Below, one piece after another: positions 5,973 to 50,109 of a stretch of DNA of 64,000 nucleotides. This DNA is from Amoebophrya sp. A120 (Eukaryota > Protista > Dinoflagellata), in assembly GCA_905178155.1 (NCBI GenBank), contig CAJINV010000005.1, positions 2,945,161 to 3,009,160 on the forward strand. Reading direction: 5' to 3'. The notes beneath the pieces are model-generated. The model searched no databases. It saw only the letters and a program-made list of their open reading frames with translations, and was not told the origin of the DNA. A program made the position numbers and the translations under genes. Every line of letters begins with the position of its first letter. Position 1 is the stretch's first letter.

Positions 5973-8900
5973 TCACCCAGAGGACCCACTGTCGCTTGAG
6001 CTCGAGCTCCCGCTATCGGAGGATTGACTGGAGGAGCTGCTCGACGCCTGCTGCTGTTGGCGTCGTCTCTTCGCGGTTTTGCCCCTCTCTGTGGACGACA
6101 GTTGCTGCCGAGGTTTTTTCTGCGGCGGTGCATTGTTAGACCCCGTTTTGGTGGTCGCTGGTCGTTTCTGCGCTGGGGGTGCGGTAGAGGGGGCCTGGGA
6201 GTGTTTGGATCGATAATGACAGCATTTCACTTTGCACTCTTCCTTTGAGAAAAAACAATGTAGTGCAAGCTCCTTAGACAAAACATAATTTGTCAGGCGA
6301 GCTTGAAATGCTCGCCCTCGTCCTGTCGTTGGTTTCCTGAATGTTAACTGTCTGCGCTGGAATGCATTTAGAGCCAGGCTTTTCGAGCGACGCAACACCA
6401 CCCGTTTTAGCAGTGGAGGCAAGCTCAATGTGGGACAAGGAATAGCACGGTTTAGGTCTCTGCGAAGCCACGCGGTGACAAGGAAAGCGGCCAGGGCTAC
6501 AACAGGCACGACTGAAATAAGATTTTCACATTTACCTCTTTCGCCGTCCTGCCCGTAATATTCCTCGCATTTTCTTCGCGGGCACTGGTCCGGTCTTCCC
6601 GCGCGTTCCCTCCCCGCGCACCGCCCTCTCGTGTGCGGATCTCCCTCTCAGACTTCCCTGCATTTATTTCTCGGTCCCGTCCGGCAGTCCCGCGGGCGGA
6701 CCGCTGTGGCTCGGCCGTTCTGTTGTTCTCAGTTTTGTTCCTGTCCCGGTCCCCGGTCGCGCCTGTCCTCGTCGTCGTCGCTGCTGAATTCTTTGCTCCG
6801 GCAGCTGAATTCTTTGCGCCTGCATACTTATTCGTACCACTGTCGTGGTTGTTGTTTCTGTCCCTAGTCGTGCCCCCACTTCCTCGTGCCGGAGGCGAGG
6901 CTTCTTTCAGGTGGTCTCTGTCTTGCCCTCTGTCTTGTCCTCTTTCCCCCCGTCCCCTGCTCTTTTCCTTTTGCTCCACTGCCCTGGTTCTTGGTGCCTG
7001 TTTGTTGTAGTTCCCGTTCCTCGTGGTCGCGCGCCCTCGCTCACTCGCGGAGGACGAAAGGTCCGACTCCTCGTAGCTCTGCGGACTGGGTTTCCGCTTG
7101 TTGCCCCTCTGCTCCGCCCCCGGTCCTCGGGAGTTCACCTGCTTCCGCGTCACGGGCTCCTCGCGGGCGGTGGTGCGGGTCTTGTTCCCTCCCCGGGTCG
7201 TAGTAGTTCTCTGCTCGAAATTTTTCGACCGACTGTCCGCTCGACTCTGCTGTTTCTGTGCAGTTCCGGAGGTCGTCGGGCCATTTTTGGTGGACGTGGT
7301 TGTGGTGTTGAGAGCTTTATTGTGGCCCCGCCCTTGGTGTTGATGTTCCTTGTCCTGCTGATGTGTCGAGGTTTTGATGTTAGCTCCTGATCTGTTGTTA
7401 CTCGCTTTATTCGTCTCTACGAGGGGCTCAGAAGCAGTATTTTTCGTTTTTTTGTTCACTGCAGCCACGGTGCTCGATACCGGTTTGTGGTTGTCCAAAG
7501 CGTTTTTCTTGCCCCCACCAGTTGTCGTGCCTCTTTGACTCTGCACGACCCGCGGCCCCCGCTCCCTCATTTCCGAGCTCTTGCTCTTACTGCTGCTCGG
7601 CGAACTGCTATCCAGGCTGCTGGCCGAACGGTCGGACGGAATCTATGCAAGAAAAAAACTGTGTAAGTGTAGCTCTGTAATGCAAAACATGCAACAGAGT
7701 TACGCCTGTCATGCCAGACAGCCATGAAGTCGTCTTCTCGTGTGTGTTTTCCCTTACAAGCCACGCGTGACAGGTTTACTCAGTGATGTAGAGCAAATTT
7801 GTGATGCTGTCAGCCGAAGATAGTTACACTAACACAGTTTTTTTCCTGGATAGAATCTCAATCTCCTTCACGACTGGAATATAATTCGCGGATGAAACAA
7901 CTACTCCTGCTGCCCGGCCGGCGCTTCTCGCCTGCTTCGCACTCCGGGTCGTGAGTTTCATCTTCGTTTCGTTTCCCGCTGCGGGTCCATTCGTTGTGGT
8001 GACTTTCATGCCATCATTTCTACTGCTTTCGCCGTCGCTTATTGCAAGGAAAAATCCCCCCTCCCCATATTGACGAAGCACGTTTTCGAAGATTTGTGTT
8101 GCTGATTTGAGACCACAAATCGTGCCTGTGTTGGAAGAAAACAACTCCACAGGCTCCACCGCATTATGCAGGCGGTTTGTCATGCTGTTGGGCCTATGGT
8201 GTGGACATTTGTAGTGCTAGGCGCCTAGGTCAAAACCTCTCTACTCAGGCTTGATATGGGTCTGCAGTCCTCTCCAGCAAGACAAATCTCATCTGTGTAC
8301 GCAAATCCAGCATCAGAAACTTCGTTTTGATATGGGGAGGGGGGATTTTTCCTTTTCATATCGCTCCTGTGGTCTTCAATGTCCCTACTCGTCTTCAAGT
8401 TCAAATGATTCTTCAACTCCCGCTGCTCTCGCTCCGCCGCCCGCCGCGCAGCACCATTCGGATTGGGCGAGAGGATGAACCCGCTGTTTCTACTATCCTT
8501 GTTCCCAGTTGTGGTACCACCCCCAGCACCTCGTCGTGTTACGATCGTCGTATTTGTTGTTCCTACTTCACGCTCTACTCCCTCCCGTTTCAGCGGCGTG
8601 CCCCCGCGGCTCGGCCCGCGGGTAATCAACGTCGGAATGCCGCCGGCGCGGAGTCGCTGGAAATCCTCCTCCGGAGAGGAGGTCACCGCCCGGCGCAGAT
8701 TCACCGCCGGGTGCATGTCGTTGCTCAGATTCGGGGACACACGCTTGTCGTTCGAGATGCGCGCCATGCGGTCCCGCTTCGAGAGGAGCACGACCTTTTG
8801 CTGCTTGTTGTCTTCCTGTTCGTTCTGCTGCCGGATGTGGATCGCAGGCACCAGGGTCACCCTGATTTTTTTGCATATCAGTTCCAGTCGTGAGGAATTT

Positions 8901-10213: not shown

Positions 10214-13200
10214 TCATTCGGGTGGCTTTCGCCACAAGTATTGCATTCCCTCTCTGAGCACCCTGGGGGGTGATTTTTCTTTTCTCCTCCCTCTTCGGCT
10301 CCTATCTCTACTACAGGATCTGTCTAAATTTCTAAGTGCAGGGTCTGCCGTGAGCGCTTTTGTACTCTGATTCCATTTCGGTTTCGCAGAAGATGCAGCT
10401 CCCCCGACAAGTTGATGCGCAGAGGAAGATTTTTGCGTTTGTTCCCTTTCCAGTTGCTTACGGCTCGGGTTCTTCGCTATTAACGTCTTTCTTGAGCAAC
10501 CACTTCCAAGAACCTCTGTTGGCATTGCTTGCTCCCTTAACCTACTCGGAAAAGACACCCTCTCTTCGGCCCGTTTTCGAAATGCAACCGGTCGCGGCTC
10601 GGTTTCGCTACTTTCCGCCTTCTTCCTCGACTTGCTCGACGTCCCAGCATGATCCGCATGCAACCTCTCCCAACAGAAAACTTTTCGCTCCAGCTCCACA
10701 ATCTGCGAATCTATGGTCTCGATCGGACTACTAGGAAGATGATGAAACAACCCTGTAGAATTATTTCCCGCGAATGTGATGTCATCTTCCAACCGCCTTG
10801 ACTTATTGTTGTTCTCATCTGAAAGACGATCTAGTCCTCCAGCAGCGCTAGCATTCTTCGTGTTGACTTCGAACGCCGTGCGCCAGAAATCGAAACGTTC
10901 CGCCTGAGGGATTTGCTTTCTCGGCTGTTCCTCCTTGTCGTTCAACAGTGTAGTTTCCTCCGCCGACAGCTCCGGTGCGACCGTGGCGCAGGAACCAGCT
11001 TCGGAATTGGAAAAAGACTCACCCTCAACTTCAACTTCCACTTCCTCCGGCTCCGAGTAGAATTTCTGTTGCGAGTTGACCAACGGAGCTGCTGATGGTG
11101 CTGTGCTGTTCTTCTCTGTGTGAACGCTTTTCAGAAGCGCACCCTGCAGGTCACCGTCGTCACCCACCGACCTCCGGTTTTGTTCCTGCGAAGTAGTTGT
11201 AACTCCTCTGGGAGGTATTACTGTAGTTATTTCCTTTTTACTCTCTACAACAGCTCCGGTCGTTCTTGTATCTGTATCAGCCTCGTTTTTAGCAGCACTC
11301 TGCGGCTGCTCAGCCCCGATATCGAAGTGGTGCATCAGTGAGGGGACAAAACTGTTCCCCCGCATGGGTTTTTTCACGGGCGCAGAGGCGGCCTTGGGTC
11401 GGAAGGCGTGCATGTGCTCGAAATGCGAGGAAGACTCGTCGGTGTCGTCTATTTGGTGGGTCCTAAACCCTGTTTTTCCGCCGCTGCTGGAGGGTACATT
11501 TGTCGTGCCCGCTGCTTCCGACGCTGACGATTGTGGTCCCAGATTTGTTCTAGCCACCACAGGTTCCGCCACGTTGACCGCTTCCGCTGGTGCCTGCAGC
11601 TGGTGTGAGCCCACACTGGTCCCCGACTGCATTAGCGGCGGCTGCTGCTCTACGGGCGGCCGGCCGGGTCCTGGTACTAGTAAAATCGCCGGTTGTTGTT
11701 CTAGGAGGGCGCGGCCTACTACTTGAGCAGGAATGGGCGGAGTTTTCTTAATAGCATCATTTGTACCATTTTTTCCGACGGCATTCTGTAAGCGTTCTCG
11801 GCCGTTCACAAGACCTCGGCCAGGATCTGGCCCATCGTGGTTCCCATCCATTTCTGAGGAAGGGAGAAAATCTGTAACAGGAGTATTTGTATTGTCCTCC
11901 GGAGCTGGTGCACTAGAGGAAGTATTAAACCCGTTCAATATCGGTTGTTCTTGAGCAAAAATCTTGTTATTTCCCCCGTACAAATTCGGACTCCAACTGG
12001 CACCGTCTACAGGAGCGTCTGCAGCTTCACTTCTGCCTTGTACAATTTGCACTCCTTGAGGTTCTTCCCCCTCCTCCTGCTTCCTCCTTCTGTTCTTCGC
12101 CAACCCCTCTTTCCGCACAACAGCGGGGGCTACGTTCCACTTCCGCGGCGGGTCCTCTACTGTGTTAGTACCACCACCAATAGCCGTTTGTTTCTTGGGT
12201 AACGCGTCGAACAAATTTTTCGCCTCCTTCGGCGCCTCGCTCACGACCGGCGCGGCAAAGGGGAAATGCTGTCGGGGGCTGATCACCGCCTCTTTTTTCG
12301 GTAGCGGCAGGATCTTCGGCCGGACGAAAACCGCTGGCGTGGGCTGGTCGCGGGCGAGGTTTTCCTTTTTGCCGAAGATACTTTCCGCAACTTCCACCTG
12401 CTGGGGGTTCATGACCGGCTCGTCGGCGACTTTAAAGTTCGGGTCAAATTTTCGCCCGTGTTTCTGGTTAAACACACGCATCTCCGTGAACGGCGCGGGC
12501 ATTATATTTTTAGTAGACGGGTTTTCTTTACTATTCTCTTTCTTCGTTGCCAACATCTTCACCGGTTTTTGTTGTTCGCTGTCACTCGTCGAGGACCCGG
12601 ACCACAAAGTATCCCCCCGCTTCTTGAACGGCACACTCAGCGCGCCGGCTTTAGCTTTCGCCCGATTGTGCTTATTTCTGCTGTGCACCGTCGGCGTGAT
12701 CGAATCCCCGATCGACTCGTGCTTCCGTTGGACTTTTATCTTTTGCTCTTTAACATCAGCCTGGACATTTTGTCCCTGCTGCTGTCCTCCTACAGCATCG
12801 TTCTTACTCACGGAACTTTTTCCAGCCTCGATTTCCTGCCAGGTTTCCCTTGTGCTGTTATCGCGGTGGAGCACATTTTCAGGAAGTTCGTTGTCCTCGT
12901 CGAAAACAAAATCTTCGTGCTGCAACTTCTGCTGCGAAAACCTCTCTGGCAGGGACAGCGAAGATTCCTTCGGCGCCGGCAGCATGCCGGACGACGCTTT
13001 CGAGGTAAAGTCCCGGCTTTTCTTGCCCGCCGCCGCACTCGGTGCCGCAGCAGGAGCTCCGTCTTGCGACACAGACACTATACTTGATGTTGTACTCGGT
13101 TTGTTGATGTTCTTGCTGGCCTGGACTTGGGAAGATGATCCTCGTGGAACTACACCACCTGTTCCGTGATGTCCTCCTCCGATTCCCAGCATGTTGTCCA

Positions 13201-16200
13201 CGATTGCGACCTTGGTCGCCGCTTCACTGACCTTCCGAAGCGAAAGAGTAGGTTTCGGCTTATTGTTGTTCAGCCCCATCTTTTCGTTCCACTCCTTTTT
13301 CGACCGTCGGATCGGGTGCACGGTGTTCTTCTCCTGTCGCAACGCGTGCAGCGCGGCCTTGTGCGCGTGCTCGATCTCGTTCGCGATTTCGTCGGATTTG
13401 CTGCCGTCTGCCGGGCCAGCTTCTGCTTTTTCTTGCTTTTCCCGTTTCTTTTTATCCAAGTCCAGCTGAAACAAATGCTCTTTGTCCTTCGGGATCTTCT
13501 CCAGCGGGGATGCAGCTTTAATATTCTGCTTGTTGGAAAAATTGCCATAATTTCCGCCGGCGTCTTCCGGGACGACGTCGAGAGCAGCAGAATTAATATC
13601 CTCTTTATCCCCACTGCCCGACCGGTTGCGCTTTCTCTTCTTCATTTCCTTCTTCATCAAGTCGATACTGTCCGTATCTTTTGAATTTTGGTCCATCAAC
13701 CCGAACTGCTTCCCGAGCATGGATTGCCGGCGCAGCGCCTGCTCGTAGATCAGCGACTCCTGGGACGGCAGCATGCTCAGGCTGAACATCCGCGGAATGT
13801 CGGAGGGTTCTAATGCCGAGTGCCTGTTCTCAAACGGCGACGAAGACCGATCGTTTCGCTTGTTATCTCGATCCGGAATATTAAACACCCCACTGCTCTC
13901 CGCTGCGGAAGACAGCGTTTGGTGCCAGAAATCCTCCGAATTTTTTCCCGCTAAGATCTTTTCGTCAACTTCCTCCCCGACAGCTCCCCTTATCCGCAGC
14001 AGCTGTTCCAAATAAACGCCCGTTTTTCGGTTGGGATTCTGCATCATCTGGTCGATCAACAGCGCCCGGGCAGCGGAGGTGGTCATGTCCTGATCGGTCT
14101 GCGTTTTTTCGAACTCCTCGAGGAGCTTTTGTTTCGCCGCTTGGCTCGCCTTACCCGCGCGAACCGCGTCCTCGTCGTTTGGAACTGTCACATCTTCGTC
14201 CTTCGATCGCGCCCGGCCCTTGACGATCGTCGTGACCTTGTTCAGTTCCGCCAACGCCGTGCGGAGTTCCGGCGAAAACGAGTCCCTTGCGCGACGGTCC
14301 TGGTTTTTATTTTCACGACCAGCTGCGGACGAGGTCGTGGGCGTGGCGGCGGACCTTCGCATTGTCTCGACGTCGACCACATCGGTCGACCTGCTCGCCC
14401 AACTTCTGTTCGGAACAATAGGTCCAGCACCTCCACGCTGTTCTTCCTGGTCTTCATACCCACCTGCTTCCGACGACCGCGGCGGACTCCTGGAGTGCCC
14501 GCGCGCGGAGGAAAGAATTTCGTCCGCCCGCGCTTCGGCTTCGTCTTTCGAAAAGTTTGTGTTGGACGTTCTTGTCAACGTTAACATCAAATTCGGATCG
14601 TACACAAGCGGCTGCGGCCCAGAGGGGGTCAGTAACGCCACGCCGCTGATTTTCGAGGCTTTGAGCAATTGGTGCCGGTTGTAGGCTAATGCGCCGACTT
14701 CCTTGATCGCATTCGTTCCCTTCCTTAGCGCTTGCTGCGACACGTGCGCCCGCAGCTGCGGAATCCCGTGGACGAAGGGGCTTTCCAGCCGCCCGGCCAG
14801 GGTGTAGACTGTGTTCACGCTGGACCGCACCAATCCCGGGTAGTCGGTGTCCTCGTGATTTGGTTGTACTGCTGCACTTCCTTTTCGCTCGGCTTGTCTT
14901 AGGCTCGTCTTCTTCGTCCCACTCGTTCTTGTGACGGTAGAAGTGTGGTTCCGCGATTTGCTCCCGGAGGTTTTTGTGCCGCCTCCTTTTCGCGACGCGG
15001 AGCTCGCTCTGCTGGACAGAGAGCCGGACCTTCTGGTGCTGGAAGTTCTTGTTCCTGCTAGTTTCTTTCCTTCCTTCTGCTCCGGCGCTCCTGCTCCCGC
15101 CGAGCGTTTGGGCGACGAGGAACTTCGTTTACTATTGAGATTTCCCGACGAAATAACCGGGTTCGCGACCACGCTGCCCCGTCCCATGGGTTTTTTCAGG
15201 GACCCCCTGGACACCACCACCTGCTTGGCTTGCTTGGACACGGATGGCACCGCCCTGCCCGCCCGCAGCGCCGACGCCCGAGTTTGCCCGCCCAGGGAGA
15301 CCGCGGACGACCGGGAGGGGGACCGGGAGCTGGGCGATCGGGCCACGGGAGCGGTTGTCGTTGGACCGGAAGTACGAAGATTATAAGACGCTTTAGAGGT
15401 GGTACTCTGGTGCTGTTGATCCTCCGCGCGCATACTTGCAATCGTGGCTGACCCCGTGGTTCGGTGATTATCCACGATGGTAGGTCCGCTTGTTGTAGAC
15501 ACGCGATTTATGGAAGATGCGTTAATGGTGCCCTGCTGTGGTCTATTATCTTCCCCGCCAGTAATTCCTTGGCTCGTTCCCGAGAACCGCACATGATCTT
15601 CCTGGTTTTGCGACCGACCACCTAGGGATAATCTTCCCTGGTGCCCCCATGGTCCAGGGCTACCTGCAGCTTCGGCCGCAGACAACCTGGGATAATTATG
15701 ATGCGCGCCGTCGGAAGAGAACAAAGCGCTTGATGTTCTCTTTTGCTGCTGCTCACCGTTTTTTTTGTTCGACCTTTCAAAAACTCCTGCTCCGTGAAGA
15801 TGAACATCATTGTCCACGTCGACCGAGACACGTTTGTAACTGTGAGCACCTGCACCTCCAGAAGGTCGTCCCAAAAGCGCACTGCCGCCCCGCGAGGGCA
15901 GCTCCCGACTGCTCTGTTCCTGCGGTGGCGTGCCGCCCCCGCTGTGGTGGTCCACGACCGCGCTGGGGAACTTCAGAAATTCGCTCACAGCTCCTGCGTC
16001 GTCCCCACCCGACATGTCGAACGTGGTCCGCGATTCCAGTTGCGCCAACAACTTCTTCTCGCGCTCGCTGCTGCCATTCATCATTTTCGCGGTTGTACTA
16101 CTACTTCCCCCTTGCGGGAAGAAGATACTGCTGCTGCTATTCAACCCCGTCCCCCCCGGAGACGAGGACCACTCGCTCATCGCCCGGAGCAGCGCGTGGT

Positions 16201-19200
16201 GCTCCGGCGACAGAATTCCGCTCACGCCCGTCACCTCCTCCGCTGCGAGGGAATCCCCACCATTCGGACTGCCAGGACTCCGGCTCCGCAGCATACTACT
16301 AGTATCCCGCATCCTCGTGGCAACAGCCTGCTCCTGCTGCATTTGCAGGAGCAGCACGATCCCGTTCAGCACCTGGAGACGGAACTTTTGGTCCTCCGGA
16401 ATGTCCCCGTTCGCGTCCAGCAGCCGGGATTCCAGCAAACTCGCGCGCAGCTCCCGCCGCAGTTCTTCAATCCCCGAGGCGCCGACCGACACGGGCGGCT
16501 TCAAGTCCACGGCCTGAAACGACTCCTTCGTGAATCTCTCCGAAGACCGCGGTTTGTTATTTTCGGCGGAGGACGAGGTCTGCGACGCAACCTGGGTCAG
16601 CAGTTGCACCACGCGGGACCGGAACGCCTGTTCGTCGTCAACCTCGTTGAGGCTGGCGCTTTTGTAAGATTTTTGTTGATCCGGTGCTGCGGCTCCAGCT
16701 TCTTCACGACCCGCTGGTCGTTGAAAGATCCCCCGATCGACGTTCTCCGCAGCTGCTCCAAACATCTGGTTGAAAAAGTACACGCTCGCGGCGGTGTCGT
16801 CCTCCATCTCGCCGAACACCTTGCCGTTCTTCCGCCGCTATCAAATGTAAAAATGTCTGGGTCTGGAAGGATGTAACTTGTGATGCGCATTTCAGAACAC
16901 ACAAAAATCTCTGATGCACAGGCAGCAAAAGCTACTCACTTTCTGTCACCAAAATAGGGGACTTGTCATGCGGATTCGGCATTGCGGAAGGTTCTCGAAA
17001 CCTGTGATGCTAGAGCTGCCATGCCAGACCTTCTGTGTCATGCAGAAACAGCATGACTCTTCCAGACCCAGACATTTTTACATTTGATAGCCGCCCTTGG
17101 GCGATCCTGTGTCGGCTCGCGTTGATTCTCTCCTGCAACCTCTGGTCGATGGGCCCGACCCACTCTTCGCGGGGCTGGGAGGTGGTGGCCGGTCCAAGGT
17201 TTATTTCAGCACTCCTCGTCGCTGCCCCGCCGGTTTTCAGCTTGGTGGTTCGGTGATGCAAAAAGCCTGTAGGCGCCTGATGATCCACCTCCAGAAGCGG
17301 CTTAGAAGGCGGATCGGCGTTGTAAGGTGTTGCACTGGTACCGCTAGGCGTGATGTGCGCCGGCGTCGTATCGGAAGGAAAAATCCCCCCTCCCCATATC
17401 GAACACGAAATTTGTGATGCTGTATTCGAGGTCACAAATCGACTTGTCATGCTAGAAGGCCAAGAGCCGCAGTCGTGGCCTCGTTTGCAGGCAATTTGTC
17501 ATGCTGTTTCCCACTCTCAGATGCCTCCTATCATGCTGAAGATGCAAGGCTTCCCCACGCCACCCAGCACTACAGTCCGCATCTTTTCCCGTGTAGCATG
17601 ACAAAGCTGATTTGTGACAACTCTGCATCACAGATTTCCGTTTTGATATGGGGAGGGGGGATTTTTCCTTTTGATACGTCGTGATGTGCATGGAGCCGAC
17701 ACGCGCGGCGGCGCCCGTAGCCCGCCCGTCGTGGAGGCGATCCGGCGCGAAAAGCTTTCGCGCGCTCTGTTCGGTCGGCTGCGCGAACCGGGGCTTCACT
17801 TTGCTCGCCTGAAGTACTTGGGGTGTCGTGCGACTCAACATCGTGCGGGGAGTCAAGGGCTTGTTCGTGGTGATCGCCCGGGGGCTTGTTCTTTGTTCTC
17901 GTCGGGAAGTGGGGGTCAACGTGCCAGTACCTCCTCTGGGACTTCTCGACGCGAACGCTGATGCAGTCGCCGGACTTATTCTGGGGGAAGCGGTGGAAAC
18001 CGGCCGCGCAGCAGGCGACGCGTGAAAAACACGTGGCGTCGGCGCCTTCCGCGGCGTTCGATCCCGCCGTTGAATCGCGGATAACACACGCAGACTACTA
18101 CTCTTCCCCGCCCTCCCTGCGCGGGGAACAACTCCTTCTTTGCGTGGCGTGCCGTGGAGGCTCCAGGCCTGCCGCGGCGTGTGGTCCTGCGACGACTCTT
18201 CGCGCTGCAGGGCCGCCATCTTGTGGCTGTAGGCGGGACTCGGGGTGCGGTCGGCCAGTTTCGTTGCGTGGTGCACCACGCCCTTCGCCGGAAGTTGCAC
18301 AAAGAACCCACTCGCCGAAGATGGTGGAATATTACCTCGTCCTGGCCCTCCAGTTTTGTTTTTCGCCGCGTGCCGGCGAAAAGCGGCAGGCACGGCAGCA
18401 GGAACACCGGCGGTCGTCGTGTTTTTGTCCCTTGTATTAACGGTGTTGATATAATTGTTAGTAGATGCGACGATCTCCGGGCTAGAAATCATATCGCCGC
18501 GGCTTTCTTCATCTTGCGGTCCAGAGCCACGACCCGTCCCTGTCTTAATTTCTTGTTCCGCATCACTGTTACGTTCTCGCTTGTAGTCGTTCCCGGGCGC
18601 GATCTCCACGGCGACATCCGTTGCGGTCGTGTGCAGCTGTGGAACCTCTAGCGACATGCGCTCAGGAGCAACTGGCGGGCTCTCCTCGCGGGACGCCCGG
18701 GACAGCATCCCACTAAACCTGGGGTTCGGGGGGTCGCTCGGAAGCGACAATCCGGAGATTATACTGGTGTTGGTCTGCGAAAACTGCAATGTGTTTTATT
18801 GTTCGAATAGTAGTTTTAGGGAACGTCAGCGACGCTGGGCACTAGAAAACGTGAGCAAAATAAGTAACACGCCGCACTCAGTTTTCCTGAAACACTGCAA
18901 AAATCCCATTTTTTCAGAGGCTCTGTATCAATTTGCTTTGCAAGCAGCTACATACTTCGCGTACGAAAAAAGCGCGACCGAATCAATATCGAGTATCAAC
19001 ACGGCAATCTTGTTCTACCTACTTACTCACAACAATTTTAACAGAACTAGAAGACCATTATCTTGAAAGCAATTTTCTCCTACTACCTGGCTGCCCTCCC
19101 GTGTGCGCAGTCTTGAAAGGCCGGCCTGCTGCAGCGCCACCGCATCTTCCGGCGCTAACGTGCCCAACGCGACCGCCTCTTCCACAAGTTTGCGCAGCCC

Positions 19201-22200
19201 GGCCATCCGCCGGGCAATATCGTCCAGCTGGCTCGTGGTGCTCAGCGTATTTTCAGCAGCAATATCCAATTGAAAAGCTCTCCCTCAGCAGTGTTGTCCC
19301 AGAAGTGGAAAGAAAGATGTGATGTTGATGACGAGCAAAGCTTTATTTCTTCCACATGGACAGTTATTGCATTTTTCGTCCCGCCTTGCACGACCTACAA
19401 AGCTGTGCCTCTACTTTTTTCATTCTAATTCGGCGCCATTCAGCTTCTACATGACGAGTTTCGCTTTTGCTTGCACCTGCTCTCTACAAGAAAACAAAAA
19501 ACCAAAAGCAAAACAAAATCAAAATGCAACTACAACGCTTCGTCCATTAAATAAACTTCTTGCTTGCACGCATCACAAACATTCCTCTGCTCCCGGGACC
19601 ACAATATAGGAGCGGTTCGTCTCACTTTGGTACGACATGCTGACGGTGCTTCGCAGCTTCTGCTCGTCGTATTGATCTACTGCTTCTGCTAATTGAGGAA
19701 AAATAATCTCTGCCGCGGACTGCAGCCTGGAACTCCGCCGCGCACGCTCGAGCATGTGCAAATGAAACTCCTCCTCGCTGCCGTTTTCCCCCGAAACTAG
19801 ATGCAAGCCGTCGGAGGCACCTCCAGGGCCGTCGTGGACTGCTTCCCCTTCCGGCGACCGCGAGGGTCGTCTACTATGTTGTTGAACCTGCTTCGTGCTG
19901 GTGGTGGTCTCTAGCTGGTGTCCAACTTCGTCTTCTTCTCCGTGCGGCGAGTTGATCACTAGATGGGGTGGGCGGTACTGCAGCCCGTACGGCCGCACGT
20001 TGGTCAGCGCGGCAACCGCGCTCGCGATCGTTTGGTGCTCTGGAGTTTGTAGTTCTTGTTCCGGACCAGCAGTAGAAGTTCTTGGCAGATCATAACTACC
20101 AAGAACAGCAGGACCACCCCCCGTCGAACTCCGACCTTGAAGACTTGTAGTTCCTGCCGGCCCACGAAGCTGGTCCTCACGAGTAGATGATATTCTTTCA
20201 CTAGCGCCCCCAGCCAACACCTCCTGCAGCAGGCTGACCAACTCGGGACGGGTCTTCAATAATTGTTGAAAAAGCCGCTTTTCTTGTTCCGACAGAGGCG
20301 AAGTAGAACTACTAGTACCCGACATCAAACCCGGCGCTGTTTCTGTCCTACTTTTTCGTGCTTCATCTAAACCTTCCGCGGGAGCAGGTCTTCGAGGAAC
20401 AGGAGTCGTACTCATATTTTCCGACGAAAAGAAATCAATGTCTTCCTCGTGCCTCAATTTCCCGGACAGCTGGAGCAGATCCAGCTCGTGCATCGTGTCG
20501 CGAATCGTGTCAATTTGCTCCAGCACCGCGGATCGCCGCTCCTGGTCTTCCTCTCCTTCCATGTGCAGTAGGTGATCTTCGACTCGTCCCGATCTCTTCG
20601 GAGAACCCCGACCACGACTCGGAGCCTCCGCCCCGGCCAACTGTTTGCTGTTCTGAAACAGCTCGGAAAACCGCGCACTGGGACTGGACCTTCTAGAATT
20701 CGCTGCTGCGTTGCTATGTTGATTTGTGGTCGAGGACATCACAACTGGTGGTCCACTCCCGTCGCTGCTCCTCCCGTTCGCCGCCCCGGCGTTCCACGGG
20801 GGCTGCTGGAGCAACTCGCTGGAACTCGACATCGTGCGGAAAGCCTTCGCCGCCTTGGCCAGTGCCGCCGCGGAATGCGCACTGCGGGTCGTCGTGGTCG
20901 TCGCACCAGTCGCCCCCGCCGTGAGAAGGTTCTGGTGGCTCAGGTTGCGCCAGAAACCGGGGCGCGCGCCCGCGCGAGCAGCAGGCGACGCGAAATTAGT
21001 AGAAATTGCCGTTGATGTTGTAGTCGCTTGTTGGGGCAGGTTCAGCAATAAACTTCTATTCGGGTCTGTGGTAACTGCAGGTCCAAAGAGATTTTTTTCG
21101 GAGGAGGACAAAAATAAACCGCCTTTGTTATTATCGCTATTGCCCGACGTCGCAAGACCTCCAGAAAGCTCCTGCAACCGGTCCACCTGCGAGGCCCGGG
21201 CGGTTGCCTGCAACAGCTTTTCCACCTGGTCCAGCCGCGCGTGCAGGTCCCGCATGTGCTTGATCCGCGGCTGCGTGTGCTTCTGGGCCGCCAGCCGGTG
21301 CTTCCCGTATCCTGAGTAAAAACGTACCCACACCAGAGTCAGGATGGGGATTTTGCAACACACACCTAGAAGCTTTGTGAGCCACGCATGACAAGTTGCA
21401 GTCCGTAGTGTAGTGCATGTTAGCAAGGAAAAACGTATCACAAATCCATCTTCTTATCCTGTTTGCAGCATTACAAATTTCAAAACACGACTGGTAATGC
21501 CTCTCATGGAGATGCGCATTACAAGTCTTCCTGTCATCGCAAATCTGCATTACAACTCTGGTGTGGGTACGCTTTTACTCAGGATATCCCGGTGCGCGGC
21601 GTCAAGGGTTTGCTCGGCGGCCGACTCTATCAAATGTAAAAATGTCTGGGTCTGGAAACTTGTGATGCTGGGTGGCGTCTCATGATGAGGCTACAAATGT
21701 TGAGCTGGGCGCCTCAGATGGAAAAAGTCTTCCGAATTTCTTTCAATTTTTTGAGATTTTTTTTTACAAAAAAAATTTGCAATTTTTCGCTTTGCTTTGC
21801 ATTGGGAGAAAGGTTGCGACTCACGTCGTCCGGTGAATTTCTAAGGCGGCTTCGCCTTCCCACCTCCTCTGTTGAGTCGAAGCTGTGTGGTATGCTGCAT
21901 CGATGCCATTCCAAGTGGTATGGTGGACTCGTGAAACACTCACCAAAGCAAGCCTCAACTTTTCCTCACAAAAAGTGCTCATTTTTGGAAGCCAAAAATG
22001 ATCACTTTTGAGCTTCCAAAAAAGTCTCTTGCTTTTCCTCCTCGATTTCGCCTTCCGACCTTGCATACCCAAAAAAAAAGTCTAGAAAAAAGTCTCCTCT
22101 CCCACTTATATTCTCAATTATTGGGGGTCTTTTTCGGTTTCACCTTCTAGAAAATCGAGAGACTTTTTTTTTGAGGTAAAAATGGGAAAGTATGACTTTT

Positions 22201-23135
22201 TTGGAGTTCACTTTTGGCCATCAAAAGTGAGCACTTTTTGTGAGGATACGTCACCACTTCTAAAGGATACCGAAAAAGGTCGCTAGAAGTAGACAAGAAA
22301 GCAGCAATTTGTAATGCGGACAAGCTGCAAATAAAAGCAGTACTAGAACGAGAGGGGTCTAGTAGAATAGTGCAGCCTAGCTTCGCGGCTGGCCAGCGAA
22401 CGTTGTCACCCGACGACGAGTGACCATCAAAATTTTTTTTTTGAAAAAAAAATCTAAAAAAATCAAGAGAAAATCGGGACGGGGGTGCCATCTGAGGTCG
22501 CCCAGCTCAACAAATGCTGGCTCAGCATGACAAGTTTCTCAGCTCCTAGGTGTTCTCTATTCTGCATGACAAACTGCGCTTCTGCATCACAGAGAAACGG
22601 AGCTCTTGGGTAACGTGCATGACAGATTTAAGAGTCATGCCGAACAAGCATGACAAGCATGAATTCTTCCAGACCCAGACATTTTTACATTTGATAGACT
22701 CCCGGGCGACCGCGACCGGGAAGTGGAGGAAGCTTTAGACGCCGCCTTGGACGCGGGTCTCACGGCAACACGACGCGCCTGCGGTTTTGCGTCCTTCGCA
22801 GGACGAGCAGCTCCCTTCGAAGTAGCTTGTGGCTTCGTCGTGGAGGAGGTCTCTTGCGCAGCTGCGCTGGGTTTTGAAGTAGATTCTCCGGGCCCTCGCA
22901 CCTTCGGCGGGATCATGGGACTGCCCTCCGCGGCCTTGCGCCGCACCTCCGCCACCACCGCCAGCAGGCCGCGGGCGCCCGGACCGAGCGGACTAGATTT
23001 CGCTGGTGGTGGCCCGGGGGCGGAAGAGGCAGCACTAACAACGAGGCCCTTGTTCTCGCCACCGGTTGTTGTACCTGCCGGCGTCGTCGCCCCCTTCTGC
23101 GCCGCGAGCGCGCTGCGAAACTTGTCGGCTAGCAT
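10214..23135 (-). CDS. Very large (about 3400 aa if one gene) low-complexity, probably disordered protein; 6.6-kb terminal exon
   Basis: The 2201-aa ORF joins upstream ORFs in frame across TIR elements 16839-17089, 17369-17676, 21308-21586 and 21628-22696 and GT-AG intron 18784-19086. The junction near 19289-19608 is not resolved, so two genes are possible. Confidence 0.65.
16839..17089. mobile_element. Introner-like TIR element, family A
   Basis: 30-bp perfect TIR TATCAAATGTAAAAATGTCTGGGTCTGGAA; direct repeat gccgc/gccgc. Confidence 0.95.
17369..17676. mobile_element. Introner-like TIR element, family B
   Basis: TATCGGAAGGAAAAATCCCCCCTCCCCATATC...GATATGGGGAGGGGGGATTTTTCCTTTTGATA; direct repeat cgtcg/cgtcg. 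Confidence 0.93.
19289..19608. mobile_element. Decayed TIR element or intron
   Basis: Imperfect inverted ends (TGTTGTCCCAGAAG...TGTGATG versus TGTGGTCCCGGGAG...TGTGATG) between two coding segments; no clean direct repeat. Confidence 0.45.
21308..21586. mobile_element. Introner-like TIR element, family C
   Basis: TATCCTGAGTAAAAACGTACCCACACCAGAGT...ACTCTGGTGTGGGTACGCTTTTACTCAGGATA; direct repeat tcccg/tcccg. Confidence 0.94.
21628..22696. mobile_element. Introner-like TIR element, family A (252-bp subfamily), carrying a nested insertion
   Basis: Perfect family A TIRs; direct repeat gactc/gactc. Length 1069 minus 811 (insert) minus 6 (insert duplication) equals 252, the same as the copies at 41849 and 51191. 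Confidence 0.93.
21700..22510. mobile_element. Non-autonomous foldback/MITE-like element nested in an introner
   Basis: TIR TTGAGCTGGGCG(A)CCTCAGATGG at both ends; target duplication caaatg at 21694-21699 and 22511-22516; further internal inverted repeats. Confidence 0.88.
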
Positions 23136-24393
23136 GGAATATAAGCCCTTAGAAGATTTAAGTTATTTGTGATGGGCGAAATGAAGAATCTTCTAGGGCT
23201 CCTCTTCCATGCGCTTGCTTCCGCTGGACGAGCGACTTCTCCTTGAAACCACGTGTAAAAGTTTTCTGTCGATAGCAACTGAGCGTCGCTGCCCGAAGGC
23301 ACTGCGTTTATGATGTTGCGCAAAAGTAGACTTCATAGTAGCATAAAAAGAAGAGAAAAAGCGACGTCAATTGCTACAATAAATTCAATGAGCGGGACCG
23401 CGACCTGCCACAAAACTATTCATAACAACTGGAAAACTGTAGCAAGTTCAGAACATAGAGTACCTACCTTTCTAAAACACAATTGTATCATCCCGCCTTC
23501 ACTTTTTCCGGGCAGTCCGTGGGTCGCACGGGCCGAAGTAAAAAATTTCTATCATCTACTACTACTTCGTATGGTTTATCTCAGCAGGCAGGAATCTGCC
23601 TGTGCCCAGGAAATAAATCATGTTAATGTAGAGTAAAAAAATTTTCTCTGGTGTAGCTGTAGCAAAATAGACGGGGGGAAGCTAAATTCTACTGTAAAAT
23701 GAATATACGTCCAGGGGGAACTCTGTAGTACACAGGGGGAACTACTGTGGCGAAAAGACGGAAGGTGACATATCAAAAAAGCGGGTGGTGGTAGGAGAAC
23801 CTCAAATGTTTTTTGGTACGAAATGGACGACGCTTGCATCTGAAACAATAGCGTTTGCTTCAGGAACGAAAAGTCTAACCGAACGAAGACGGAGCAAAAT
23901 CCTTTACATGACCGACCAACCGTTCTGGAGAACACGAAAATGACCGAAGCAGAAACTTCATTAAACCAAGCACCACAGTACGAGGAAATGTGGCTTGCAG
24001 ATGAACCGACGAACGAGGAAGCGAAAAGATATCTTCAGAACGACACGACATTGGAATTCTCTTGGACGACAGAAAACAGAAAAGACGCAGCAAAAATGAC
24101 GACTGCACAAGGGCTTCTTTGGGCAGTGGAATTTGGTCTGTTTCTCTTGTTCTCTAAATGGCCAGCACGCGCCTCTAGTGATCCTAGCGAACCGAATCAA
24201 AGTGGTAGGTAAACACAGTGAAAAGCACAAGCACGAGCGAACAACTCCACATGGATCTTATTTTATCATCAATCTTCATGCTCGCGAAGATTCGCTTTGC
24301 GTTTAAGTTTAAAACTACCAGCGTTGTAATATTATGATTCAGGTGGTCATGGTCTCTACTCCTGCATTTTGGTTCATCGCAGCAGTAGTTCGT

Positions 24394-40432: not shown

Positions 40433-42951
40433 TCACAGCTCCACCTTCGGCGGAGGTTTTTTCACCCCGCTACTGCTGCTGCCTGGCAGTTGCTTTTTCG
40501 CCTTCTCCGCGAAATACAGCCACGCCCCGATCGGCCACTCGACTTCGGAGCCGTTGATTTCTTCCGTGAAAGTGATGTTGCTGCATTCGTCGCAACCGTT
40601 GGTGTACATGTGAAGCAGCGTGTAGATGTAGTGCAGTTCGAAGCACCGGTGCGGGAGTTTGGACTTGCTCGTGTACTCGTGTCCCTCCTTGACCTTGCTC
40701 TGCCACTCCAGCAAGCACAGCTTCTCCGCTATCACACAGAAGAAAACTGGCATAATGCAAAAATAGATACGCAAAAAAATCTGCGTTGCATATCTGAAAC
40801 AGCATGCTGTGGGGCCAAGCATGGCAGATTTTTCTGTGTATTTATTTTTGCATTACAAATATGCCCTGCCAGCTTTTTTCTGTGGCATATCCGCCGCTTG
40901 CTTTACCGATTTGAGCTTCGGTGCGGGAAACTCCTTGAGATAATCGAGTTCCGGGTAGTGCTGCTGCAAAAGCCACCGCGCAAAATGCGTCACGTACATG
41001 TAGCCGCTGGGTTATGGCGAGAAAAAAAGTTTTCACTAGTATCATCATGATGATCCGGCACTTTTAAAATCTTACTTTTTCCATCATATCCGAAAATAAG
41101 GCACTCGTCCGTGGTGTAGCCGATTGTCTGTACACTAATTACTTTACACGCACGATGTAGTCGCACTTTCATGGCGCCGCGCATGACAAGCATATTCGTA
41201 AGTAATTAAGTTGCGGACTATGCAGGAGGATACGAGAAAACTATCCCGAAGCATACGACCGCGATAAATTTCAAGTTCTTGTTCTTCAGTTTTTTCCAGT
41301 CTTTCTGCATGTGGTGCGGTGACCCCTTATCGTGTTCCATCGCCGCGCGCACGAGATCTGTTTTTTTGCGAAAATGTACCGTTATTCATTCGCCCCTCAT
41401 CTCGCTGTATAATCAAAGCAATTCCGGCGGCAACAACAGCAGAGGACCTGTAAGAGTAGTTGCATACTGATTTCTGAAAAAGCAACACTTCAACGCAAAG
41501 TTCACGCACCTGCGCAGGGCTTCCCGCCACTCGAACTACTACCCGCGCTGCTGCTTTCGAAGCCGGAGAAGTAGCAGCTTTTCCTTTCTGCTGCCGTGAA
41601 GAGTTTGTTGACTCGTTCGCGAGTGAGTTCCATCCCGGATTCCGGGAAAGAGCGGATAAAGCTGTTTTGCCTCGTGATCCGGTTGCAGTCGTTCGGAATG
41701 GCAATCTGGGTGCTAGAACCGCCCAGGTCCAGGATTCCGTGCCGTTCGCAGGGCTGCCCAACGTTTTGCATCTGCTTCACCAGGTAGTTCACGCCCATCA
41801 GGGCGAAAAACCCCTCCTGTTCGCCCTCGATGGTTTCCGTGTTCAAGATATCAAATGTAAAAATGTCTGGGTCTGGAAGAATTCATGTTTGTCATGCTTG
41901 TCTGGCATGACTCTTAAATCTGTCATGCACGTTACCCAAGAGCTCCGTTTTTCTGTGATGCAGAAGCGCAGTTTGTCATGCAGACTAGGCAACACCTAGG
42001 AGCTCAGAAACTTGTCATGCTGAGCCAGGATTTGTAGCCTCATCATGAGACGCCACCCAGCATCACAAGTTTCCAGACCCAGACACTTTTACATTTGATA
42101 CAACAGCTGGAACTGCAACTTGTCTGTTGAAATAAGATCATCAGTCCACGGATTACAAAGTCAAGGCACCACTTATCTTTTAAATTTTTTCTTCGCGAAG
42201 GTGACATCATGATCATACATCATCTTCGGTCTTTGCATATTTATCGGACAACATTAAGTCCGATCGGAAATGGAGGGCACCAAACGTCGCAAGTATAAAA
42301 AAATTATCAAAATTTAGAACCCGCTACATCCCCCCGGAAGTAGTCGTTCAGCCCGCTGCTTACGCTCTTCCACACCCCTTCTCGCTTGCTGGAGGGCAAC
42401 AGCCGCATGCCCGCGGTCCCGAATATCTTCACCCCGATCGCCCTACCGTAGTACTTCGGCCCCTCCTCCTTCATGAACTTCGCGAACAGCCACTGCAACG
42501 GCTGCAGCGCCCCCTCTGGTTTCTCGGCGAAGGAGCTGAGTCCCGGCTTCTTCTTGCCGACAATTTTGGAGTGGAGTAGAACGCCATCGGTGTTGCTGTG
42601 AAACACGTACCTGGACAGAATAGTACGGATTTTTATGTAGTACAGGTGTTGAAGATTTTCTTTTGCCGCGTTTATTTCCTAAGGACGTCTCTGGCAATGC
42701 GGCACTTGACCGCCATGGCATTCTTGCGAGACGCGGTAGCATTGAAAAGATCATAGAACGATGAAAACTATCTTCCGAGACAGCTGCTTTGAAATTTCCA
42801 CTGCGAAGAGCGATGGTATGTCAAGAAAGTACATTCGCGATCCCGTGCTCCCCGCGTCTATGATGATTTCCACTTTTTCCGCTTGTGCCAGCACCGCGCG
42901 CGCCGCCGAGAAAGCAGCCACCGCGATCCGCGTCGGGAAAAGCCGCAACAT
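40433..42951 (-). CDS. GDA1/CD39-family nucleoside di/triphosphatase (apyrase) with signal peptide and C-terminal KVEL
   Basis: ACR1 IIIDAGSTGSR, ACR2 FGTAGMRLL, ACR3 IEGEQEGFFALMGVNY, ACR4 GILDLGGSSTQIA, ACR5 WPIGA. Confidence 0.9.
40730..40889. mobile_element. Introner-like TIR element, family D
   Basis: TATCACACAGAAGAAAACTGGCA...TGCCAGCTTTTTTCTGTGGCATA; direct repeat tccgc/tccgc. Removal gives KQAAEKLC. Confidence 0.88.
41040..41232. mobile_element. Decayed TIR element within a probable GT-AG intron
   Basis: TATCATCATGATGATCCGGCACTT versus reverse complement TATCCTCCTGCATAGTCCGCAACTT; direct repeat lost. Confidence 0.5.
41849..42100. mobile_element. Introner-like TIR element, family A (252-bp subfamily)
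   Basis: Family A TIRs; direct repeat caaga/caaca; near-identical in reverse complement to the 21628 element. Confidence 0.94.
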
Positions 42952-47835: not shown

Positions 47836-48005
47836 ATGATAACACTTTATGCTGTTTAAATTATAAACAAAGCATTGGCAACGCATTGAGAAAAAAACCA
47901 TAGCGCCACCGAGGAAAAACCATTTGACAAAACATGACACAACGTTTCGACATGAAGGGTGCTCTTGCGATAGCGAGCCGGCGCAAAAACAAAGCGAAAA
48001 AGTTA

Positions 48006-49218
48006 CCTAAGCGAGGCAGTACAGAAGCACTACTTAAGCGAAGCACCACTTAAGCGAAGCACTTCTTAGGCGAAGCACTACGTAAGCGAAGCACTAGGCA
48101 GTGCCTAAGCGAGGCACTACTTAAGCGAGGCAGTGCTGAAGTGAGGCACTACTCAAGCGAGGCAGTGCTGAAGCGAGGCACTACTTAAGCGGGGCACTAC
48201 TTAAGCGAGGCACTACTTCAGCGAGCCAGTGCCTAAGCGAGGCACTACTGAGGCGAGCCAGTGCTGAAGCGAGGCACTACCCAAGCGAGGCACTACTTAA
48301 GCGAGGCACTACTTAAGCGAGGCAGTGCTGAAGCGAGACAGTGCCTAAGCGAGGCACTACTTAAGCGAGGCACTGCTGAAGCGAGGCACTACTTGGGCGA
48401 GGCAGTTCTGAAGCGAGGCAGTGCTGAAGCGAGGCACTACTTAAGCGAGGCAGTGCCTAAGGGAGGCACTACTAACTTAAGCGAGGCAGTGCCGAAGCGA
48501 GGCACTACTTAGGCGAGGCAGTGCTGAAGCGAGGCACTACTTAAGCGAGGCAGTGCTGAAGCGAGGCACTACTTAAGCGAGGCAGTGCTGAAGCGAGGCA
48601 CTACTTAAGCGAGGCACTACTTAAGCGAGGCACTACTTAAGCGAGGCACTACTTAAGCGGGGCACTACTTAAGCGAGGCACTACTTAAGCGAGGTAGTGC
48701 CTAAGCAAGGCACTACTTAAGCGAGGCAGTGCTGAAGCGAGGCACTACCCAAGCGAGGCACTACTTAAGCGAGGCACTACTTAAGCGAGGTAGTGCCTAA
48801 GCGAGGCACTACTTAAGCGAGGCACTACTGAAGCGCGGCAGTGCTGAAGCGAGGCACTACTTAAGCGAGGCAGTGCTGAAGCGCGGCACTAATTAAGCGA
48901 GGCAGTGCCTAAGCGAGGCACTACTTAAGCGAGGCAGTGCTGAAGCGCGGCACTAATTAAGCGAGGCAGTGCCTAAGCGAGGCACTACTTAAGCGAGGCA
49001 GTGCTGAAGCGAGGCACTACTCAAGCGAGGCACTACTTAAGTGAGGCAGTACTTAAGCGGGGCACTACGTAAGCGAGGCACTACTTCTTAAGCGAGGCAG
49101 TTCCTAAGCGAGGCAGTGTTGAAGAAGGTGGAGCACTGTGGGCGAGGCACTACCTAGGCGAAGCACTATGTAAGCGAGGCACTTTACTACGCAAAAACGC
49201 GGCACTGCCTAAGCGAAG
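48006..49218. repeat. 16-bp variant minisatellite, about 75 units: AAGCGAGGCA plus CTACTT, GTGCTG or GTGCCT
   Basis: Read directly from the sequence; units degenerate at both edges. Confidence 0.95.
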
Positions 49219-50109
49219 TGCTTCGGTTTTTGCACGAAGTATTAAGTAGTTCAAGTTCCTCCGGCCTCTCGGTCTCTTCGATTTATTAGCCTAGGACTAA
49301 ACAAAACTGTGCAAACCACCTCAGCCCGCAGCTTTATAATTTTTGTATGGATCATTACGTCCTCGGTTCATAGCGGCTGCTGATTTCGGTATAATACCGG
49401 AAGAAAACAACTCTCATGCGGCCGAAGTTTTGCCATGCGATGTAGTTTACTGGTCGGTGTATTTCCCTGCACAATCTGGAACTCGAAGGCTCGATGAAAA
49501 AAGTTCTGAATGCACGTGAGCCAGATCGGAGATTCGGTTGTTGCACGATCGAATGTCAGTTTCTCGGATGCCATCACTGCTGAGTCCATGACCTTAAGCG
49601 TTCTACTTTTACTAATGCCACCCTCTGCACACAGCCTCGCGCAGGTTTGATGATGATCATAATCTATTTGTTGATCTGCAGACTGAGCTGAAAAGCCACT
49701 TGTGATGGAGGTGCGCCACAACAAAATTTGACCACCACCCAAAGAAGTTACCTTTTACCGCACGCGACGAGAGTTGTTTGTTCACGTATAGAAGTTGTAC
49801 GAGGATGTAGTAATTGCAGCTCAACAAATTATTCCGATAACGTATTCCTGATACGATATAACTTCAGAATATGCACTTTGTGTCTAAAAATACACTGACC
49901 TGGTAGAAAGAAGTACATCCAGCGCTTGTTGCACCAGCCCGCCACAGCGTTGCCCTCGTCTGAGATGCGGCGCCTTGAGCGGGACGTCGTTGCGGGCTCC
50001 TGTAAATAGATAAGCAGTCATTTCATTATTAATCACATCTAAACTGCCTTTATTTGCCAGAAGATGGAAGGCCGGGAGCCTGTTAGAAAAAATCTTTTTA
50101 CTTCGCACC

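Follow-up and report, generated by a model that had tools for sequence, protein, structure and literature searches.

In a 64,000-nt stretch of the genome of the marine parasite Amoebophrya sp. A120 (contig CAJINV010000005.1, positions 2,945,161 to 3,009,160; this whole stretch is called the window and is numbered from its first letter), the first intron of a 3,438-aa protein gene is a family A introner that is split by an 811-bp element, the insert. The explanation that we prefer, and regard as rather probable, is that the insert is a transposon-like element that landed in the introner and that the whole 1,074 nt are removed as a single intron in which the insert is a passenger. The introns of A120 that lack GT-AG ends number tens of thousands, and no U1 RNA has been detected in it. 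An introner with an insertion in it amounts to a natural mutant in which the ends are preserved and the length and interior are altered, and the present case is of value as a single natural mutant in length among these introns.

Structure of the insert and its host introner

The host introner lies in two parts, 72 nt at 21628..21699 and 180 nt at 22517..22696, each including a 30-nt terminal repeat, and it is bordered by the 5-bp duplication GACTC (left copy 21623..21627, plus strand; right copy 22697-22701). Minus the insert and one copy of the repeat that flanks it, the introner measures 252 bp, and 242 of these 252 positions are identical to a sibling at 41849-42100. All 252 bases are retained, merely split, in agreement with an earlier note on this DNA that had described the insert as interrupting an otherwise intact copy. 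Both introner ends carry TATCAAATGTAAAAA, a terminal inverted repeat composed of TAT, seven bases and a run of A, which is the signature of A120 introners (PMC7789003). The host copy is also like those introners in its non-canonical ends and in its direct repeat across the exon borders, GACTC lying within the range of 3-5 nt given for them, and it belongs to a repeated family, with siblings of up to 242/252 identity in the window and 146 loci in a relative.

The insert occupies 21700..22510 (no strand assigned; GC 0.42), where the earlier note had placed it. Its terminal inverted repeats, 22 nt at 21700..21721 (plus strand) and 23 nt at 22488..22510 (minus strand), differ by a single extra base in the right copy and match exactly elsewhere. 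Both ends are abutted by CAAATG, a likely target-site duplication, at 21694..21699 and 22511..22516 (both plus strand). Further inverted pairs inside the element, also reported in the earlier note, were confirmed: T/A-rich subterminal arms at 21722..21778 (plus strand) and 22430..22487 (minus strand) pair with each other to about position 80 from each end, with 80% pairing over the whole arm of 79-81 nt, and an inner inverted block is found at 21963..22001 (plus strand), 263 nt from the left end, and at 22208..22246 (minus strand), 264 nt from the right end, the complement of CCTCACAAAAAGTGCTCA being located at 22228-22245. When the left half of the insert was aligned to the reverse complement of the right half and each segment was compared with 1000 shuffles, the observed symmetry scores of positions 1-23, 24-80 and 256-310 were reached in none of the 1000 shuffles, and positions 81-255 and 311-405 were at chance level (652/1000 and 499/1000 shuffles, respectively). 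We rejected homologous arms along the whole insert, given the chance-level score of positions 81-255. The idea that the inner inverted block is a third, separately nested element was likewise rejected, since the block is symmetrically placed and no flanking duplication of its own was found; the block therefore belongs to the build of the insert. The interior at 21963-22246 contains 12/13 copies of a short AAAAGT-like motif in an inverted arrangement; these may be sites to which a protein binds, held at a fixed spacing from the two ends.

The longest stop-free frames in the insert are 123 and 119 aa. A Pfam scan of 27 of its 29 frames returned no family at the curated cut-off and three weak matches below it (the frames outside the scan are 21630-21713, which is mostly host introner, and 21680-21742, of 20 aa), and an Rfam scan of 21500-22800 returned five matches, every one under its gathering score. 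In its terminal inverted repeats, target-site duplication and lack of coding capacity the insert resembles a miniature inverted-repeat transposable element (MITE), and it is likely a non-autonomous DNA transposon; its later arrival in an intact introner is supported. Its ends and its duplication differ from those of the introners of the window, as had been claimed: all 20 catalogued TAT..ATA introners have a 5-bp duplication, exact in 15 and with one mismatch in 5. The host is the one insertion-bearing copy among the 20, and the others measure 185-321 bp.

The length of the duplication allows more than one reading. The filled site exceeds the empty site by 817 bp, which equally fits 811+6, 813+4 and 815+2, and three symmetric readings of the ends fit because the target reads CA..TG. 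With 811+6 the insert ends in TT..AA and the duplication is CAAATG; with 813+4 the insert spans 21699-22511, its ends are G..C (GT..AC, on both strands) and the duplication is AAAT; with 815+2 the ends are TG..CA and the duplication is AA. The earlier note had given 6 bp and allowed for 7: CAAATG is indeed exact and the maximal flanking repeat is 7 nt, but the length is not fixed. We infer that the 6-bp reading requires the fewest coincidences. A single copy cannot decide among the readings, and therefore no superfamily is assigned.

A 4-bp AWWT duplication is the hallmark of Sola1, and the listed Sola1 MITEs begin with G and are 194-709 bp long, with one partial copy longer (PMC3845634). The 813+4 reading is similar in its AAAT duplication and G..C ends; however, the terminal sequences of those MITEs differ from those of the insert, the 4-bp duplication is one of three readings, and no transposase links the two. 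Duplications of 6 bp are characteristic of the superfamilies IS3EU, with ends TA..TA, GingerRoot, with ends TA..TA or TG..CA, and Polinton (PMC10045372). Under the 811+6 reading the insert shares this length with all three. IS3EU and GingerRoot do not fit in their ends, the 6-bp reading giving TT..AA and the TG..CA ends coming with a 2-bp duplication. Polinton elements end in AG..CT and do not fit the insert either.

The insert may itself be an introner, as there is a published A120 family, fam196, of the same length. It would then be an introner of a second kind inside another introner, and removal could be sequential, inner first, as in a twintron of non-canonical introns. We regard this as doubtful. 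In Dataset S2 of PMC12130899, fam196 comprises four introns (811/811/810 bp) classed as terminal-inverted-repeat DNA of unknown family, with 5' splice sites of one GT and three other and 3' splice sites of three AC and one other, an automated duplication length of 2 and a terminal repeat of 54-57 nt. The insert, of 811 bp and with terminal inverted repeats, agrees with the 810-811 bp of this family and is likened to it by length alone, and fam38 of A120 (808-810 bp, TA/TA ends, 5-bp duplication; PMC12130899) shows that such lengths recur with other ends. The 813+4 reading, in which the insert starts with GT and finishes with AC on both strands, would suit the AC that ends three of the four fam196 introns. 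Against membership stand the automated duplication length of 2 and the terminal repeat of fam196, which is shorter than the approximately 80 nt of the insert. The weak Pfam labels of fam196 did not turn up in the 27 insert frames, a comparison of low power in which weak matches are dropped by the method. Nested introners have been reported in Micromonas (PMC3879977), and the insert is predicted to fold as a closed hairpin of its own; yet introner status elsewhere would not itself mean that the insert is removed first here. The full form of the proposal, a twintron of two non-canonical hairpin introns removed in turn, the inner one without TAT..ATA ends, seems to us unlikely. If it were true, a long stem with a short direct repeat on either side would be enough for the machinery to cut at its base, irrespective of the end sequence. 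We keep to a transposon-like insert, but the earlier description of an ordinary MITE of a class apart is to be tempered: the inverted repeats, the duplication and the non-coding nature are in line with a MITE, but no second copy was found in the window or in metagenome_contigs and the 811-bp fam196 is already published.

Probable removal of the composite intron

The host gene lies at 10214..23135 on the minus strand and has seven coding exons; no Pfam family was found in the four pieces of its protein that were scanned, and protein searches found no relative. The first coding exon is 22697..23135 (minus strand), with its ATG at 23135. It is followed by the composite gap, intron 1, at 21623..22696 (minus strand; 1,074 nt, sliding by 5 nt) and by a second exon of 36 nt at 21587..21622 (minus strand). 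Next comes a neighbouring family B introner, intron 2 (21308..21586; 279 bp, 5-bp duplication TCCCG). A seven-exon model in which introner and insert are skipped as one 1,074-nt gap is identical to the deposited 3,438-aa A120 protein P0001. The host frame opens when 22696-21623 and the family B introner are skipped, that is, on exact removal together with one copy of the duplication, and it stops at residue 166 if the composite intron is retained or if the insert alone is removed. On the coding strand, a GT..AG pair one base off the borders (21627-22699, 1,073 nt) arises from the host duplication GACTC; if that pair were used, the frame would end at residue 213. This frame shift, together with a misfit to a probable RNA contig described below, led us to reject canonical GT-AG removal, and the cryptic pair appears to be unused in this intron.

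Alignments of transcripts and of proteins supplied the exon borders of the A120 annotation (PMC7789003, section 25), and since no relative of the host protein was found, the 1,074-nt gap is probably derived from a transcript. Run X3, presumed to be RNA, is in keeping with removal of the gap. Its record 4 (460 nt) matches 22697-23014 with no other letters and no gaps, and the 142 letters ahead of 22697 depart from the genome. The match thus starts at the first base after the introner, in agreement with exact removal but not with use of the GT..AG pair. In the same run four downstream introns of the host gene, which the seven-exon model includes, are skipped, and depth is zero over 21882-22349, inside the insert. 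The deposited protein that skips the gap and the probable RNA contig that leaves the genome at the introner end together speak against an unspliced intron, a possibility that the earlier note had raised. We consider removal of introner and insert to be well supported, with the joint itself inferred, their exact excision as one intron to be likely, and expression of the host gene to be supported. Raw RNA runs X9-X11 are silent on expression either way, touching only introner-like ends and having zero depth on the host exons.

Several points nevertheless count against a transposon-like passenger that leaves with its introner. A self-search of the 64-kb window with the insert found one copy and no second, an exact scan of the set metagenome_contigs for the terminal repeat gave no matches, and a BLAST search of the insert on the 146 loci gave a best E of 0.17. 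No transposase was found in A120 (Farhat et al., PMC7789003). As to removal, the run X3 joints that are listed, 15 of 19, do not include 21622-22697; record 4 is one contig of depth 4.8 from a run that is only guessed to be RNA, and it is possibly not independent of the deposited gene model. The spliced mRNA would be identical for one-step and two-step removal, and it could come from cells whose introner is free of the insert.

This last point can be extended to a rival explanation, namely that the DNA is as described and the spliced RNA stems from an allele or sub-population with a plain 252-bp introner, the composite allele being spliced poorly or not at all. The spliced contig need not stem from an insert-bearing DNA molecule, and run X3 does contain the joint 21692-22510, which is uninterrupted family A sequence, in three contigs with a depth of 658. 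However, the many sibling copies, with matches of up to 96% here, would be expected to yield such a joint, the eight listed pieces of run X3 show no other letters relative to the window, and no sign of two alleles was seen. We consider it very improbable that the composite intron is bypassed in this way, and retain its removal as a single intron.

The host gene has six introns: four TAT..ATA introners, a GT-AG intron and another whose ends are unusual. A 375-nt intron at 19259-19633 is skipped in run X3 and has ends GC..AC (plus strand) with one letter of slide; by self-comparison of the window it is not an introner copy. In runs X9 and X11 (97 and 424 reads), which bear the same species label, the raw RNA matches only introner ends, at 16835-17089 and 21308-21350, and then continues into other sequence, so that some libraries are rich in introner RNA of other loci, either unspliced or excised.

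Foreign DNA in family A introners of a relative

The set metagenome_contigs includes a relative that shares the introner families of the window, its copies of families A, B and C being up to about 95% alike. Nesting was surveyed in the first 80 of the 146 relative loci, those with full flanks. Among the matches listed there are at least 65 distinct family A copies in which the two ends are present and the duplication shows no more than one mismatch; it is exact in 63, and 61 copies measure 240-283 bp. Of 20 further left ends, 9 are cut by the end of a contig and 1 is the other end of a counted copy, and with these 10 dropped, 75 copies were assessable. Foreign DNA was seen in 4 to 6 of these 75, again among the matches listed. 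Four cases are closed: L036 (571-1051), L037 (minus strand, 631 bp from 808), L059 (minus strand, 972 bp from 559) and L006 (1501-2755), with direct repeats of 8, 13, 19 and 21 bp, respectively, and emptied they measure 253, 279, 262 and 258 bp. In L020 and L039 the left end runs into foreign DNA and the right end is not in reach, and L070 is a family A copy with an internal duplication.

Terminal inverted repeats were not found in the four closed inserts, and with direct repeats of 8-21 bp it appears that DNA reaches these introners by other routes too. The foreign DNA of L059 and L039 begins with a T run, as a reversed retro-insertion might. Reading frames across the removal span in the relative's long copies are 98-274 aa and are uninformative on splicing. 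That family A introners repeatedly take up foreign DNA is supported by these cases. All six nested junctions (L036, L037, L059, L006, L039 and L020) lie on or beside the TGTCATG-like internal repeat of the family; the repeat could be a preferred cut site, and the coincidence may also be chance because the repeat is dense in the element.

Inserts of this sort raise the alternative that the A120 insert is not a transposon and is instead palindromic DNA that was taken up once during the repair of a break, or a product of faulty assembly. So far it is a single copy, the one in the window, to which the searches of metagenome_contigs and of the 146 loci added none, and the relative's closed inserts show that DNA without terminal inverted repeats does enter family A copies. 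Capture would leave unexplained that an exact flanking repeat abuts an inverted repeat of 22/23 nt, that three symmetric blocks each lie beyond 1000 shuffles and that the host copy loses no base at the insertion. As to an assembly error, 0.85 of the sampled words of 20500-24000 are present in run X1, compared with a maximum of 0.76 without the insert, which weakly argues against it; X1 is possibly the window's own source. Lack of other copies combined with an artefact was the outcome that the earlier note had named as undermining its proposal; the first part applies to the window and metagenome_contigs, and the words of X1 weakly oppose the second. We hold capture or misassembly to be a highly unlikely account of the insert, and a transposon-like origin remains our preference.

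One case says little by itself, but at about 5-8% of family A copies a genome-wide set of insertion-bearing introners could test what the machinery reads.

Predicted folding and possible recognition of the ends

We propose that the introner would have settled first in the host gene, and that a transposase made elsewhere would then have inserted the element through a staggered cut of 6 (or 4) bases. The insertion would have been tolerated since the 30-nt terminal repeats and the 5-bp duplication of the introner were left untouched. The outer stem is predicted still to form, with the insert folded as a hairpin within it, so that the exon borders would be kept as near to each other as in a 252-nt copy. 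The predicted pairing of the 30 terminal pairs has a mean probability of 0.98 with the insert, compared with 0.90 in an empty sibling. A hairpin joining the exon borders has already been proposed for A120 introns, recognition through their ends has been suggested, and 1,121 MITE-like families were counted among them (PMC7789003).

On these predictions, tolerance of the added length fits recognition that is defined by the ends, as the earlier note had supposed, and falls short of proof. The deposited protein does skip the 1,074 nt, but the weight placed on a four-fold longer intron was overstated. Because all 252 host bases remain, the case tests tolerance of length and not whether the interior is dispensable. 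End recognition is not proven, since the host bases are all kept, the insert is predicted to collapse on itself, and removal of the inner element first would give the same mRNA.

Relation to known introns and elements

Neither published survey of A120 introns would be expected to list the composite intron. The analysis in PMC7789003 was restricted to introns of 40-1000 bp, a range that leaves out one of 1,074 nt, and no mention of a nested element was found in it. The pipeline of PMC12130899 filters out secondary insertions into existing introns, which is why the nested case is not listed there. Among the 58 A120 rows of that catalogue are long introner families of 627, 730, 784, 808-811, about 1,190 and 1,619 bp, so that an intron of four-fold length lies within the known range. 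Its fam12 (331 introns, 252-260 bp) fits family A as fam196 fits the insert, each by length only.

Nesting itself is ordinary, passengers within introns are already known, and secondary insertions into introns occur often enough for introner pipelines to filter them. In Micromonas, where nested or merged introners have been described (PMC3879977), the inner element is an introner too, whereas here the inner element is only a candidate, and in A120 the outer intron is without usable GT-AG ends. An experimentally tested precedent for end-defined recognition is provided by the non-conventional introns of Euglena, which range from dozens to thousands of bases and whose removal needs end motifs and end pairing, as shown with synthetic introns (PMC12501133, PMC11282704). 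Those introns belong to another lineage and have the end motif CAG..CTG, and the papers found contain no equivalent test in Amoebophrya. A literature search whose coverage excludes most subscription journals and some supplements also gave no account of an Amoebophrya introner that has another element nested in it. The accessible text of PMC12005148 and of bioRxiv 10.1101/2020.10.14.339549 offers context only and no nested case.

Other observations in the window

A family B-like pair of ends lies about 340 bp apart at 52345-52695; its right end is damaged, and it shows no clear duplication of 5 bp. At 57290-58441 a 15-bp exact inverted repeat with a spacing of 1.15 kb encloses two family A introners, which is about what chance gives in 64 kb. 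Short palindromic elements without TAT..ATA ends were seen at 7651-7845, 40753-40855 and 51918-52097, and the palindromic element at 51902-52113 has a 93% match in locus L019 and is thus a repeat family. A 1.2-kb stretch at 48004-49222, purine-rich on the plus strand and with up to 16 self-matches, is probably a tandem coding repeat.

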